Assembly (NCBI GenBank): GCA_041675085.1
Contig: JBAYUN010000001.1
Coordinates: 87,347 to 151,346 of the forward strand
DNA length: 64,000 nt
Reading direction: 5' to 3'
Source: Minisyncoccota bacterium
GTDB lineage: Bacteria; Patescibacteriota; Minisyncoccia; Phycocordibacterales; UBA9973
Of this stretch, positions 8,122 to 25,747 are shown piece by piece (the first letter of the stretch is position 1; every line of letters starts with the position of its first letter). Below the pieces are notes generated by a model. It ran no database searches. It worked only from the letters and a program-made list of their open reading frames with translations, and was not told where the DNA came from. The position numbers and the translations under genes were made by a program.

Positions 8122-9003
8122 ATGCAAAAATTTAAAATAATTGTACTTTTATTTTTCTTTTCTCTATCTATCGTTGGTATAGCGTCTGCCGAAAATACAA
8201 ATACAGGGTTTGTGCCTTCTAATATTTGGTATTCTAAAGATCCTTTTTCAGAAGGGGACAAGATTAAAATCTATACTCTCTTATTCAATCAAGACGAACG
8301 TGAATTCTCGGGTTTTGTCGCTTTTTACAATAGAGATACTTTATTAGGTAAAAAAGAATTCTCATTAAAATCTCAAGAATCGTCTGTCGTGTCTTTAGAC
8401 TGGACTGTGACTGCAGGTACTAATACCATATATGCAAAGATAATAGACGCCAAATTCTCTCTAGGTGAGGGGCAATATCAAGAAGTCGTCATTGCTCAAA
8501 ATCAAAGCGAGAAAAGTCAAAAGGTGGTTATTAAAAAGATTTCTAAAGATTTAGAAAAAGTAGAAGATACTATAAAAGAAAAAGTTACTGATATCCTAGA
8601 ACCAGCCAAAGACATACCGGAGACTATAATAGAAAATACTCCAGAACCGATATTATCTGTTGCCAATAAAGTAGATGGACTTAGAGTCTCTGGAGCAAAT
8701 TATTTTATCGATAAAAAAGAAGATGCCAAAAACGACATAGCAGATTACAATAAAACGCAAACTGTCAGTCAAACAGAAAATTCAGAAAAGACTAAAGAAG
8801 ATACTAAAAAGACTGAAGCAGAAACGGCAGTAAACAATAAAGAGCAAACACAAAAATCCAGTAGTTATAAACCATTAAAATATTTAAGTTTATTTTTCTT
8901 TACTATACTTAGTTTTATTTTAAATAATCAGGTTGTGTTTTATATATCTGTAGCCCTGATTTTGTTTTACATAATACGCTTTTTGTGGCTTAAATTTGCC
9001 TAA
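8122..9003 (+). CDS. Hypothetical secreted/membrane protein (N-terminal signal peptide, C-terminal TM, K/E-rich middle)
   Basis: Signal peptide ending ASAEN; hydrophobic C-terminus; no recognisable catalytic motif. Confidence 0.45.
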   Translation: MQKFKIIVLLFFFSLSIVGIASAENTNTGFVPSNIWYSKDPFSEGDKIKIYTLLFNQDEREFSGFVAFYNRDTLLGKKEFSLKSQESSVVSLDWTVTAGTNTIYAKIIDAKFSLGEGQYQEVVIAQNQSEKSQKVVIKKISKDLEKVEDTIKEKVTDILEPAKDIPETIIENTPEPILSVANKVDGLRVSGANYFIDKKEDAKNDIADYNKTQTVSQTENSEKTKEDTKKTEAETAVNNKEQTQKSSSYKPLKYLSLFFFTILSFILNNQVVFYISVALILFYIIRFLWLKFA

Positions 9004-22592: not shown

Positions 22593-23702
22593 TTAAATTG
22601 TTGTTTTTGTTTTTGAAACTTGTAAAATTAAACCGATTGCGACCAGATAAATCATCAAAGAAGTTCCTCCATGACTCATAAATACGAGAGGTACTCCAGT
22701 CAACGGAAACACTCCAATCACAGAAGCAATATGCAAAAATGATTGCGCTATCATAAGTATAACAATTCCAGAGACTAAAAGTCTACCAAAGACATCAGAC
22801 GCATTGTTGGCAATGTGAAAACCTCTCAAAGACCAAAGCATGTACAAAAATATAGTTATAACTCCTCCGACAAAACCAAGTTCTTCTCCTAAAACAGCAA
22901 ATATCGAGTCCCCTTGTGGCTCAGGCAGGTACGTAAATTTCTGAATACTTTGACCGTATCCCCTCCCAAAAACTCCTCCTGAACCTATAGCTATCAAGGA
23001 TTGCTGAATCTGATAGGCTGAACCTTTGGAGTCATGTGAGGGATTTATAAAAGTCTTAACTCTGTCTTGTAAATACGGAGTAAAAAATACTAATACTGAA
23101 AGAAATATCGTTACGATTATTCCAGAAAAAGCGATGTAGCGCATAGGTACTCCTCCGATAAAAAGCATAGATATACCTGTGACTGATATGAGGATAAAAC
23201 TCTTTGTGTCGGGTTGATTTAAAAGTATTAGAGCTATAAGACCGAGCATGATAGCAAGTGGTAGCATTCCAAATCTAAAATCAGAAACTTTATGTTTAGC
23301 CCAAGATAACCAAGCAGCAAAATAAATAATAAAACCGAATTTCAAAATCTCGGCGGGTTGAAAAGAAATAGGCCCGATATCTATCCATCTCAAAGCTCCT
23401 CCATGGGAAAATCCAAGTCCAGGTATATATACCGAAGCTGTAAGTAATATAGAACACAAGAATATATAAAAAGCGTATTTTTTCCAGATCTTGTAGTCTA
23501 TCCTAGAAGCTAAATACATACCGATAAAACCCAAGCCGAGACCTAGGACAATTTGTTTCAATAAAATATCATAGAAAACATTTGCATTCTTATTCAAGAC
23601 GCCCAAAGAAGCCGAAGTAAACATAGCCACACCAAAGAAAACCAATATCAAGGTCAGAGTGAGGAAAAATCTATCTATTTTTTTTGTTTCTTTTCTTGGC
23701 AT
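22593..23702 (-). CDS. ftsW: SEDS-family peptidoglycan glycosyltransferase FtsW/RodA (start taken at MPRKETKK; ORF open further upstream into mraY)
   Basis: 10-TM SEDS pattern; position between mraY and murG. Confidence 0.75.
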   Translation of the reverse strand: MPRKETKKIDRFFLTLTLILVFFGVAMFTSASLGVLNKNANVFYDILLKQIVLGLGLGFIGMYLASRIDYKIWKKYAFYIFLCSILLTASVYIPGLGFSHGGALRWIDIGPISFQPAEILKFGFIIYFAAWLSWAKHKVSDFRFGMLPLAIMLGLIALILLNQPDTKSFILISVTGISMLFIGGVPMRYIAFSGIIVTIFLSVLVFFTPYLQDRVKTFINPSHDSKGSAYQIQQSLIAIGSGGVFGRGYGQSIQKFTYLPEPQGDSIFAVLGEELGFVGGVITIFLYMLWSLRGFHIANNASDVFGRLLVSGIVILMIAQSFLHIASVIGVFPLTGVPLVFMSHGGTSLMIYLVAIGLILQVSKTKTTI

Positions 23703-23703
23703 T

Positions 23704-24759
23704 TTATTTACTAATAACAAATAAAATAATTCCAATAATAGAAAATACCAGTGAGAAAATCCAGAAACGCATCGTGACTTTGTATGAAGGCCAGCCCATA
23801 GCTTCGAAATGATGATGTATTGGTGCGACTTTAAACACTCTTTTACCATTACGGAATTTCTTTGACAAAGTCTGGATAATTACAGATGCTGAAGTCACGA
23901 CTAGCGCTATCGCAACAACAGGTAAAATAAATACACTATCAGTCAAAAATGCTAATGTAGCTAGAGTAATAGTCAAAGCCATAACTCCCGTCTCGCCCAT
24001 ATAGAACCTAGCCGGCGGAATATTGAACCATAAAAATGCAAAAATGCTACCTGTTATTACAGCTGAGAAAGCGGCTAGGTCTATTTGATTATTTAGAAAA
24101 GCGATAGTTGTATATGAAGCGAAAATAGAAGCAAAAACACCTCCAGCTAGTCCGTCGATACCGTCGATAACTCCTCCCGAGAAAGTAGCGAGTGATACCA
24201 ACATGAAAAAAGGAATTATTAAAATACCTAAATACGCCTCACCCATAAAAGGTATATGCACAGCGTCCATGCCGAGTTTGTAGTAGAACCAGTATCCGAT
24301 AAAGAAAGAGATAAACATTATTAAAAACGCTTTCCAAATTCTCCAAGATTTATCATCTCGTGCATATTTTCCTGTGCCAAATATTTGTATCAGATCGTCC
24401 CAAAGTCCGATAATAGCTCCGAGTATCAGAGTAAAGAAAGGTATAAGAGTTTGATTCCTACTCAAGAAATTTAATTTATTTATATCATCAGTCGGCACAA
24501 GAAGCGACAGAAGATAAAACAAAAAAACTACCAAAGTAGCTGAGAACCAGATGATAATCCCTCCAACTCTTGGAGTTTTTAATTCTTCTGTTTCGTTATG
24601 TATTTTCTTAAAATCATTAGTTGATACATTTTCATTCCTAGAATACTTTTTCCACATTTTGTATTTGTAGAAAAAATGAGTCGCTATGGGTGTAAATAAA
24701 AGCCCCAAAAAAAATGAAGCAGTCATGGGAAGAAAAATTTTAATCAAACTAAAAAGCAT
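23704..24759 (-). CDS. mraY: Phospho-N-acetylmuramoyl-pentapeptide transferase
   Basis: Polytopic; DGIDGLAGG motif; HHHFE near C-terminus. Confidence 0.85.
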   Translation of the reverse strand: MLFSLIKIFLPMTASFFLGLLFTPIATHFFYKYKMWKKYSRNENVSTNDFKKIHNETEELKTPRVGGIIIWFSATLVVFLFYLLSLLVPTDDINKLNFLSRNQTLIPFFTLILGAIIGLWDDLIQIFGTGKYARDDKSWRIWKAFLIMFISFFIGYWFYYKLGMDAVHIPFMGEAYLGILIIPFFMLVSLATFSGGVIDGIDGLAGGVFASIFASYTTIAFLNNQIDLAAFSAVITGSIFAFLWFNIPPARFYMGETGVMALTITLATLAFLTDSVFILPVVAIALVVTSASVIIQTLSKKFRNGKRVFKVAPIHHHFEAMGWPSYKVTMRFWIFSLVFSIIGIILFVISK

Positions 24760-24795
24760 ATTGTCTATTATATGCTTTTTCGGAGTTTTTTCAAA
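24752..24795 (-). terminator. Hairpin plus T-run between lexA and mraY; the stem includes the mraY ATG (terminator/attenuator candidate)
   Basis: AAAAGCATAT-8nt-ATATGCTTTT then T-rich stretch on both strands. Confidence 0.35.
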
Positions 24796-24811: not shown

Positions 24812-25378
24812 TTAGTATTTTCTTATGACAGCTTTGACTACAGCATTAATCTCTAGAGAATATTTTGGGTAGATTGGCTTGTAGTTTTTGTTGGCTGGTT
24901 CGAGCCAGACCTTGTCTCCTGTTTTACGGAAATACTTCATGGTGAATTCTCCGTCCACCTCTGCGATAACTATATCTCCTACTTTAGCATTCTTGGTCCG
25001 TTCGACTAAAACCATATCACCTTTCTCAATATGAGCGTCTATCATAGAATCACCGTCAACTTCGAGCATATAGGTCAATTCTTTTTTGTCTACAAGTAAA
25101 TCTTCTAAATTCAAAGACTCGTTTAATATCTCTTCACCTGGTGAAGGAAAACCAGCTTTGACCAGACCCAATAGCGGGATCTCTCCAAAAGATTTACTTG
25201 GAATCAATCTACCTAGATTGTCTTTATTCACGAAACCAATATCAATTAATTTATCTACTATCTTAGATACTGAGTTTTTAGACTTTAAAGCAAACAAAGT
25301 CATCATCTCAGTATAAGTAGGCATCCTTTTATTTTTACCGTAGAAAGATTGTATTTTGTTTTGATATTCGTTTTGCAT
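24812..25378 (-). CDS. lexA: LexA repressor (wHTH plus S24 peptidase)
   Basis: IPLLGLVKAGFPSPGEE linker, VDGDSM (Ser nucleophile), FTMKYF (Lys), C-terminal beta region. Confidence 0.8.
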   Translation of the reverse strand: MQNEYQNKIQSFYGKNKRMPTYTEMMTLFALKSKNSVSKIVDKLIDIGFVNKDNLGRLIPSKSFGEIPLLGLVKAGFPSPGEEILNESLNLEDLLVDKKELTYMLEVDGDSMIDAHIEKGDMVLVERTKNAKVGDIVIAEVDGEFTMKYFRKTGDKVWLEPANKNYKPIYPKYSLEINAVVKAVIRKY

Positions 25379-25381
25379 ATC

Positions 25382-25582
25382 TTAATATTTTAACACGAAA
25401 GGGAAAAATCTATTAAAGAAGCTACCTCTACTTCTTGTGTTGTATTTTATCTTCTTTAGGATAAGTTTATGATCACGAGCTTCGCGTGTGTAGTCTAGAC
25501 CTTTCATTATCTTCATATCGATAGTCTTGTTGATCTCTTGTAAATCTCTCTCTAGTATTTTTAAAAATTGATTTTGTGACAT
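25382..25582 (-). CDS. Small basic hypothetical protein (66 aa) translationally coupled upstream of lexA
   Basis: Stop TAA is 3 nt before the lexA ATG; sits downstream of the SOS-box promoter. Confidence 0.45.
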   Translation of the reverse strand: MSQNQFLKILERDLQEINKTIDMKIMKGLDYTREARDHKLILKKIKYNTRSRGSFFNRFFPFVLKY

Positions 25583-25683
25583 ATATTTACTTGTCCGCCG
25601 TAGCTTTGCGCGAAGGCTGGATTGTTTAAATTAATAAATTCTATTTATAATTCTGTACATAAATCATAATTAGATATGTATAT

Positions 25684-25713
25684 AGTATAGGTGAACGAGC
25701 GTTCACCGTCAAG
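25684..25713 (-). promoter_or_regulatory. lexA-operon promoter (-35 TTGACG, 17-nt spacer, -10 TATACT) with a Cheo-type LexA box GTGAACG-AG-CGTTCAC filling the spacer
   Basis: Perfect 7-bp-arm palindrome containing GAAC-N4-GTTC read directly at 25691-25706; hexamers flank it at 17-nt spacing on the minus strand. Confidence 0.6.
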
Positions 25714-25747
25714 AGAAAAAAGAGAAAAACTGTGGATAAGTTATACC

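Follow-up and report, generated by a model that had tools for sequence, protein, structure and literature searches.

Introduction

In Firmicutes and Actinobacteria, LexA recognizes the motif GAAC-N4-GTTC (PMC4951493). The lexA genes of Bacillus subtilis, Mycobacterium and Dehalococcoides have in common an operator with this core, its position over the promoter and a canonical LexA of the S24 type. The present work concerns a lexA operon located in a 64,000-nucleotide stretch of contig JBAYUN010000001.1 (hereafter 'the window'), which derives from a bacterium of the phylum Candidatus Paceibacterota, now named Minisyncoccota and assigned to the same kingdom, Bacillati, as Firmicutes and Actinobacteria. 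The operon shares all three of the above features, and its operator type as well as the autoregulation of lexA are already textbook knowledge. It differs from autoregulated lexA genes of the Bacillus type in the flanks of its operator (GTGAAC-N4-GTTCAC instead of CGAAC-N4-GTTCG), in that lexA is the second cistron, preceded by a gene encoding a 66-residue protein, and in the presence of a DnaA-box consensus at the promoter.

In other Bacillati, the SOS division inhibitors YneA (Bacillus), SosA (Staphylococcus) and ChiZ (Rv2719c, Mycobacterium) are small, non-homologous proteins whose genes characteristically lie beside lexA, and SulA of Pseudomonas is encoded 3' of lexA. The 66-residue protein is likewise small, lineage-specific and encoded beside lexA under a predicted LexA operator, but it is non-homologous to these proteins and contains neither a transmembrane segment nor a LysM or SulA domain; moreover, its gene is co-directional with lexA, located upstream and translationally coupled, and not divergent as for YneA, SosA and ChiZ. 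The SulA family (PF03846) did not match the window protein in Pfam at E <= 0.01 and is not among the top 25 families listed for 112 members of the small-protein family. YnzC/DUF896 (PF05979), a helical hairpin of the SOS-regulated yneA operon with which only the general shape is shared, is likewise absent from the Pfam scans of the window protein and of the 112 members (top 25 families listed). Sda of Bacillus subtilis, a DnaA-box-controlled helical-hairpin checkpoint protein with an unstructured C-terminus, also has a comparable shape, but there is no sequence relationship, and this clade is not expected to possess the sporulation kinases that Sda targets. A further tiny helical protein, functionally tied to LexA as its co-repressor, is gp7 of phage GIL01; the present family has tail-less homologues on two putative phage contigs, but it is chromosomal and resides in the lexA operon, and its profile has no sequence similarity in the PDB. 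Finally, the promoter of the SOS gene uvrB of E. coli is jointly controlled by LexA and DnaA and combines a LexA box and a DnaA box in one promoter region, as is the case here (PMC6015884); the difference is that the combination is now found on lexA itself, with a single phased box that is kept across more than 100 species.

Results

Architecture of the operon

The operon comprises the following features, given in window coordinates:

25731..25739, minus strand: DnaA-box consensus TTATCCACA, 18 nt 5' of the -35 hexamer; sole exact copy in the 64-kb window
25707..25712, minus strand: -35 hexamer TTGACG (promoter scan 10/12, spacer 17 nt); TTGACA or TTGCAT in relatives
25691..25706, minus strand: predicted LexA operator GTGAACG-CT-CGTTCAC with core GAAC-N4-GTTC, filling the promoter spacer; arms invariant and centre variable in relatives
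25684..25689, minus strand: -10 hexamer TATACT, one base past the operator; TATACT or TATAAT in relatives
25583..25683, minus strand: 5' leader of ~95 nt, AT-rich with one GC-rich stem (~25590-25625); unconserved
25382..25582, minus strand: 66-residue gene, first cistron, encoding a basic, predicted helical hairpin with a Phe-rich C-terminal tail; uncharacterised family
24812..25378, minus strand: lexA, 188 residues, second cistron, starting 3 nt past the stop of the small gene

From the comparisons described below we regard this architecture (promoter, operator, TTATCCACA, small gene and lexA in one operon) as very probably correct. An earlier reading, made from the letters of the window and their open reading frames (ORFs; hereafter 'the sequence-only reading'), had described TTGACG, a 17-nt spacer filled almost entirely by a perfect palindrome and TATACT on the minus strand, and precisely this arrangement can be read in the window, where the minus strand runs cTTGACG GTGAACGCTCGTTCAC C TATACT. 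The palindrome as such stands, with one correction: its two central bases read CT in the coding (minus) strand, the AG given earlier being those of the plus strand. The coordinates also bear out that the 66-residue ORF is the first cistron, its TAA (25384-25382) being followed by GAT and then by the ATG of lexA (25378), that is, by a gap of 3 nt with both genes in the same frame. The encoded protein begins MSQNQFLKILERDLQ.

Conservation of the LexA operator

Related loci were found with a degenerate DNA pattern for N-x2-ID-x-KI-x2-G-x2-Y-x2-[ED]-x3-H, taking one genome per GTDB species, which yielded at least 120 loci; all but one of the 120 listed loci are from metagenome-assembled genomes (MAGs) of the Paceibacterota type. 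In the window, the Cheo/DinR-type inverted repeat GAAC-N4-GTTC is present in the spacer as GAACGCTCGTTC, and by itself such a motif carries little weight in 64 kb (1 seen, 0.56 expected by chance). In the first seven relatives, however, the arms GTGAAC/GTTCAC are invariant around a variable centre and lie in the promoter spacer every time (7/7). Among 112 species-level loci, 106 have an exact GAAC-N4-GTTC within 250 nt upstream of the operon, and four of the other six differ by one or two base changes at the identical promoter position. The family promoter consensus is TTGaca/gca, GTGAACg.tcGTTCAC, N, TATAcT. In 854 kb of related loci, 119 operator sites were counted, with 108 at the small gene-lexA promoter and 11 elsewhere, the latter figure matching the 11.0 expected from composition. 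Since the palindrome is kept in the same spacer while the flanking DNA is otherwise unrelated, chance does not explain it. The flanks CGAAC...GTTCG of the Bacillus type are absent; in both the window and the family consensus they are replaced by GTGAAC...GTTCAC, which is therefore a clade-specific extension of the LexA box. These data support the prediction that the palindrome serves LexA as an operator, of the GAAC-N4-GTTC class, within the promoter from which lexA is transcribed, and it is its conservation in this spacer that supports the predicted autoregulation.

The operator can also be recognized at the protein level. Public gene calls often start too early, so that the homologues carry the peptides GERSFTYT or VNERS, which are operator and -10 hexamer translated in two frames and therefore confirm the operator in homologues independently and DNA-free. 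GERSFTYT is a handy marker of these promoters, and at the same time an annotation warning. Early starts were seen in the protein clusters P0018, P0030, P0055, P0093, P0116-P0118, P0134, P0153, P0158, P0161 and others. Separately, longer nested palindromes of the form CGAACGTGAACG..CGTTCACGTTCG were observed in the unrelated metagenome contigs L143, L199, L160 and L210, and these may represent a repeat element that contains the operator sequence by coincidence.

A phased DnaA-box consensus upstream of the -35 hexamer

Upstream of the -35 hexamer of the lexA operon, the element TTATCCACA, also written TTATCCACAG, is found at 25739-25731 in the same orientation as the operon. It was not mentioned in the sequence-only reading. 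The element matches TTWTNCACA exactly and, as a 9-mer, equals the DnaA-box consensus at every position. Within 50 nt upstream of the operator, 62 of 97 related promoters have TTATCCACA without a mismatch and 86 (~89%) have it with at most one, and its starts cluster at -17/-18, -26/-27 and -35/-37 from GAAC, that is, at a spacing of about one helical turn. It is the commonest 9-mer of the upstream segments, occurring in 66 of 106, and these segments are otherwise unrelated (median pairwise identity 0.28). The 854 kb of related loci contain 90 exact copies, 72 of them at the small gene-lexA promoter in operon orientation; the remaining 18 compare with 8.4 expected, which is about twofold over chance. 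The element, phased by helical turns, accompanies these promoters and is almost as conserved as the LexA box.

A metagenome sample chosen by the operator 16-mer alone gave the same picture. It contains 23 low-GC promoters located ~210-340 nt upstream of a LexA gene, a distance that would accommodate the small gene as expected, and the small-protein family profile matches in 22 of the 23; every low-GC lexA promoter with a long enough contig carries the small gene. In those 22 loci TTATCCACA is exact in 16 and has one mismatch in five, while L171 has it inverted. At five lexA promoters of higher GC content, which come from other taxa, no small gene is detectable and nothing matches TTATCCACA closely, and a sixth (L211) has a box with one mismatch on a contig too short to judge whether the small gene is present. 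An input of DnaA at the promoter may be inferred from identity to the consensus, with the uvrB promoter as precedent. A full-text literature search combining 'DnaA box' with 'lexA promoter' returned nothing, and to our knowledge no report has described a DnaA-box consensus phased on lexA promoters, or a link by this route between control of replication initiation and lexA.

The 66-residue protein represents an uncharacterised family

The 66-residue protein has 12 close homologues (56-97% identity). The sequence-only reading had called its gene unannotated; as a caveat to this, an identical protein is already deposited at NCBI as 'hypothetical protein WC011_00675' in a Ca. Paceibacterota MAG. 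A profile search of 1.84 billion cluster representatives retrieved 248 clusters (50% identity) at E <= 1e-3, nearly all of them 60-70 residues long. When compared with the relative L004, the small gene has pN 0.13 and pS 0.76 (synonymous changes being saturated), as against 0.15 and 0.79 for lexA. The small ORF is a real, conserved gene under purifying selection equal to that on lexA. This agrees with the conservation that the sequence-only reading had put at stake: given the selection and the presence of homologues, the ORF is neither absent from relatives nor unconserved in them.

The family consensus is MSxxQxxKxLExELxxLNxxIDxKIxxGxSYxxEARRHKxLL, followed by a basic linker and a Phe-rich tail, and N18, I21, D22, Y31 and H38 are invariant in an alignment of 112 members. 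An AlphaFold2 model places helices at residues 3-27 and 32-59 (pLDDT 82) and leaves the tail at pLDDT < 60. The proteins are very basic (median pI 10.5). Their tails consist of 21% Phe and in 49% of the members contain the motif hydrophobic-hydrophobic-x-[RK]-hydrophobic-hydrophobic; the longest run free of D, E, K, R, H, Q and N has a median length of 7 and a maximum of 17 residues, so that no stretch of transmembrane length exists. In these sequence properties the tail is reminiscent of a peripheral membrane-targeting helix or of a tag for a protease.

Sequence searches of Pfam, NCBIfam, PHROGs, PADLOC and the PDB gave no meaningful match, the best weak ones being phrog_5692 (E = 0.006; function unknown) and DpdC (E = 0.011), and none of the 112 family members matched Pfam at gathering level. 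The names given by the sources are 'hypothetical protein' throughout, except for one JGI label, 'uncharacterized Rmd1/YagE family protein'. As far as the libraries searched are concerned, the family is uncharacterised. All named organisms with a family member are Patescibacteria (Paceibacterota/Minisyncoccota), with the exception of a single 2-kb contig that carries the label Sulfurimonas.

The small gene and lexA form a conserved pair

The contexts of six family members with identities down to 27% place each small gene directly upstream of an S24/LexA gene of ~188 residues, in six unrelated neighbourhoods. In the listed loci the small gene adjoins lexA on the same strand in 113 of 120, the small gene coming first in 108 and lexA first in five. 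Seven loci have no visible lexA: five of these end within ~50 nt and one after 506 nt, leaving L093 as a clear orphan (small ORF at 2870, reverse), for which no lexA is found within ~2 kb on either side and neither operator nor TTATCCACA upstream. The gap from the stop of the small gene to the ATG of lexA has a median of 8.5 nt and is usually 3-10 nt, with many overlaps (-8, -4, -1). These arrangements point to a conserved unit of small gene and lexA that moves around genomes as a pair. Because the genes following lexA vary and mraY-ftsW-murG is near only three of the 120 loci, the pair is to be seen as the unit and the division cluster as a neighbour that is incidental and specific to this lineage. 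The emphasis that the sequence-only reading placed on a position at the head of the division cluster is thus not borne out: in the three loci the cluster lies upstream, and mraY of the window has its own promoter (11/12).

As judged by eye from N-terminal sequences, the genes that follow lexA encode a PIF1-like helicase (five loci), DinB (three loci), ABC-F, a pyrophosphatase, an AAG-type glycosylase and RarA. The helicase (~560 residues, PIF1/RecD-like) comes directly after lexA in L016, L021, L036, L067 and L116, and the dinB-type polymerase gene does so in L010, L073 and L075; in some lineages the appended helicase or dinB genes are likely extra SOS cargo. In about ten loci the small gene and lexA are separated by a second, unrelated small ORF of ~55-70 residues (M..TPFKQ..E..RLE..., with a hydrophobic tail), for which the small-protein family profile gives no match. 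The subclade with this insertion comprises L010 (4215-4415), L050, L080, L087, L092, L095, L101, L106 and L126, and has mraY-ftsW-murG upstream of the operon.

Two putative phage contigs from IMG/VR, L132 (10383-10586, minus strand) and L133 (~8185-8247), carry tail-less homologues of the small protein without lexA. The promoter of the L132 homologue reads TTATCCACA-N8-TTGCAT-N17-TATAAT and is devoid of a LexA box, and nearby ORFs look by eye like RNase H and a pyrimidine-dimer glycosylase.

The second cistron encodes LexA

The 188-residue protein scores 121.2 bits against TIGR00498 of NCBIfam (cutoff 110.95), with residues 2-187 covered, and matches Pfam Peptidase_S24 with E = 3.8e-29; the gene downstream of the small ORF is thus lexA, as proposed in the sequence-only reading. 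Residues 9-172 align to the structure of Thermotoga maritima LexA (3k2z), and the residues for self-cleavage (VKAG/FPSP site, GDSM serine and MKYF lysine) are kept and align with their counterparts in UmuD and LexA. On this evidence the gene product is assigned as a canonical LexA with predicted N-terminal winged-helix and C-terminal S24 peptidase domains. The median pI of the LexA proteins is 6.75, compared with 10.5 for the small-protein family.

Extent of the regulon and the 5' leader

No second operator is found in the window with up to 3 mismatches allowed, and apart from those at the small gene-lexA promoter the 854 kb of related loci contain none above chance; that sequence includes no recA or uvr promoter. 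The metagenome operator scan revealed no low-GC site ahead of another repair gene, and recA is present neither in the window nor in any related locus, and inspection of the ORFs of the window by eye revealed no obvious repair gene. These sequences hint at a very small regulon in which the small protein would be the only constant operator product besides LexA; the absence of recA and uvr promoters from the sampled sequence is the reason why they do no more than hint at it.

The 5' leader of the window folds with dG -17.9 kcal/mol (z = -2.5). A regulatory RNA was considered and ruled out, since the leaders of relatives vary from 13 to 148 nt and have no common sequence, and the window leader has no match in Rfam. 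GC-rich palindromic inserts of variable sequence were noted in otherwise AT-rich leaders, namely in the window (~25590-25625) and in L064, L078, L032, L020 and L070, and from their sequences these look like independently inserted hairpin elements and not like a conserved RNA.

Neighbouring features

Two further features adjoin the operon in the window:

24751..24780, minus strand: 11-bp hairpin followed by a U run, 3' of lexA, overlapping the -10 hexamer of mraY and the mraY ATG (24759-24757)
24767..24794, minus strand: mraY promoter TTGAAA-16-TATAAT (11/12), a neighbour outside the small gene-lexA unit

The hairpin after lexA (dG -14.3 kcal/mol, z = -4.9) and the genes mraY, ftsW and murG that follow it were correctly described in the sequence-only reading. 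The terminator scan left the hairpin out because its stem is too poor in G-C pairs. Its 5' arm and loop contain the -10 hexamer of mraY and its 3' arm the mraY ATG, so that read-through transcripts could sequester the start of mraY and transcripts from the mraY promoter would not. The longest ftsW ORF (22593-23849, minus strand) overlaps the end of mraY (23704-24759, minus strand) by 146 nt, and its true start is probably an internal Met (MPRKETKK...), since FtsW has 366 residues in relatives. Both oriC and dnaA of this genome lie outside the window.

Discussion

Proposed function of the operon

What sequence and comparison show is the lexA operon, predicted to be self-repressed, of a bacterium of the Paceibacterota (candidate phyla radiation), with a promoter of the sigma-70 type. 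Because the 16-bp LexA box occupies the whole spacer, a bound LexA dimer would block RNA polymerase, and because LexA retains the Ala-Gly site together with the Ser/Lys dyad, DNA damage would lift the repression of the operon through self-cleavage stimulated by RecA. DnaA may provide the promoter with a second input, that is, replication status. Since the two genes are nearly always adjacent, co-oriented and usually translationally coupled, the small protein and LexA would be made together. The small basic helical-hairpin protein might be the damage/replication checkpoint effector of this clade, by its position an analogue of the unrelated YneA, SosA and ChiZ encoded next to lexA, and of SulA. 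It would act via protein-protein binding through its hairpin, with the Phe-rich amphipathic C-terminal tail serving as peripheral membrane anchor or degradation tag, and division or replication would be delayed until LexA re-accumulates. In favour of this role are the small SOS division inhibitors found beside lexA in other Bacillati, the hint that the small protein is the sole constant product of the operator apart from LexA, the genes at times appended to the operon, which by eye are repair genes (dinB, PIF1-like helicase, AAG-type glycosylase and RarA), and the sequence of the tail. As a whole, comprising the architecture, the inferred DnaA input and the role as checkpoint effector, this statement is put forward as a tentative one. 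The sequence-only reading had proposed an SOS cell-division or damage-response effector, which from the sequence evidence is a reasonable hypothesis, though an accessory role for LexA or RecA would fit the translational coupling equally well; we place the checkpoint effector slightly ahead of such an accessory factor.

Several observations speak against this proposal. The predicted binding of DnaA is derived solely from identity to the consensus sequence, and the function of the small protein is likewise proposed from sequence and comparison alone. The protein lacks the membrane-spanning segment and the LysM or SulA domain of the known inhibitors, and a Foldseek search of its AlphaFold2 model against the PDB yielded only generic helical hairpins, none with E <= 0.001. 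Set against a MinD-type C-terminal amphipathic helix, its tail is basic and aromatic, carries the motif in 49% of the members, is modelled at pLDDT < 60 and has a hydrophobic moment slightly above that of shuffled controls (median z = 0.58). Furthermore, the neighbourhood of division genes is unconserved, and the size of the regulon was judged from gene neighbourhoods and not from whole genomes, with no recA promoter sampled. Finally, being encoded upstream on the same mRNA and coupled, the small protein is made whenever LexA is made, and such co-production with LexA does not sit well with a division inhibitor and is characteristic of the subunits of a complex.

Alternative explanations

This last point leads to an explanation that we consider possible, if not probable, namely that the small protein belongs to the SOS switch itself as an accessory subunit, binding LexA or RecA and tuning operator binding or self-cleavage. 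Precedents exist, since gp7 of phage GIL01, a helical LexA-binding protein of ~50 residues, acts in this way on LexA, and DinI and RecX do so on RecA. The near-obligate adjacency (113 of 120 listed loci, one clear orphan) would be accounted for, as would the coupled or overlapping genes, with lexA of the window having no evident ribosome-binding site of its own, and the relocation of the two genes as a pair. The charges of the two proteins are complementary (pI 10.5 versus 6.75), and tail-less homologues on phage contigs without lexA are what one expects of a factor aimed at the LexA of the host. However, the family profile has no similarity to PDB entries (the best, at E 2.5, is an unrelated protein), LexA of this clade looks canonical and complete and so misses no domain for a partner to supply, and a hydrophobic Phe-rich tail would not be needed for such a task.

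It is tempting to speculate further that the SOS system of Paceibacterota is reduced to one self-contained cassette (DnaA box, LexA box, small gene and lexA), in which the small protein would be either the only output dedicated to the response or a second subunit that the repressor cannot do without, although we consider this rather doubtful. One promoter would in that case combine the signals of DNA damage, sensed through LexA, and of replication status, sensed through DnaA, and so operate a minimal cell-cycle checkpoint in bacteria whose genomes are below 1 Mb.

A different possibility concerns the DNA element, which could be bound by a factor other than DnaA, perhaps by the small basic protein itself, so that a second autoregulatory loop would arise. 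TTATCCACA does accompany the small gene in both gene orders (L182), and it precedes the tail-less homologue on L132, where the promoter has no LexA box and no lexA is present; the small protein is moreover very basic. Such a factor is nonetheless improbable when one considers that the 9-mer equals the DnaA-box consensus exactly, that the element is asymmetric and a 66-residue helical hairpin has no known fold for sequence-specific reading of DNA, and that the copies elsewhere (18 versus 8.4 expected) are about twofold above chance, as expected of scattered DnaA boxes.

It is even less probable that the small protein has a general role, as a basic protein that binds nucleic acids or associates with ribosomes, and is linked to lexA only by shared needs of expression. 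A pI of about 10.5 and a small helical fold would suit this role, and the fold matches, none of them significant, include the coiled coil of seryl-tRNA synthetase, an RNA-binding arm. On the other hand, the family is confined to one clade, its linkage to lexA is very strict, and one would not expect a housekeeping protein to be controlled by an operator occupying the whole promoter spacer.

That the ORF, which is short, 5' of lexA and translationally coupled, is a leader peptide or upstream ORF whose translation controls expression of lexA, with a functionless product, is hardly conceivable and in practice refuted by selection and gene order, considering that purifying selection on its amino acids equals that on lexA, polar residues are invariant down to 27% identity, a helical hairpin is confidently predicted, the gene lies 3' of lexA in five of the 120 listed loci and in L182, where it cannot be a leader, and an orphan copy exists without lexA (L093).

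Implications

The SOS network of Patescibacteria was reportedly analysed by Sanchez-Osuna, Barbe and Erill in 2017, and parts of the present finding may already be known from that work. Most bacteria of the candidate phyla have not been brought into culture, and the response of their cell cycle to damage is almost unknown. Tied to lexA in more than 100 species and at identities down to 27%, the small-protein family is a strong candidate for a missing SOS component of these organisms. A lexA promoter on which a DnaA-box consensus is phased would, in turn, tie control of replication initiation directly to the master repressor of the SOS response. Both ideas are open to direct test with purified proteins and short DNA probes, for which no cultivation is required.

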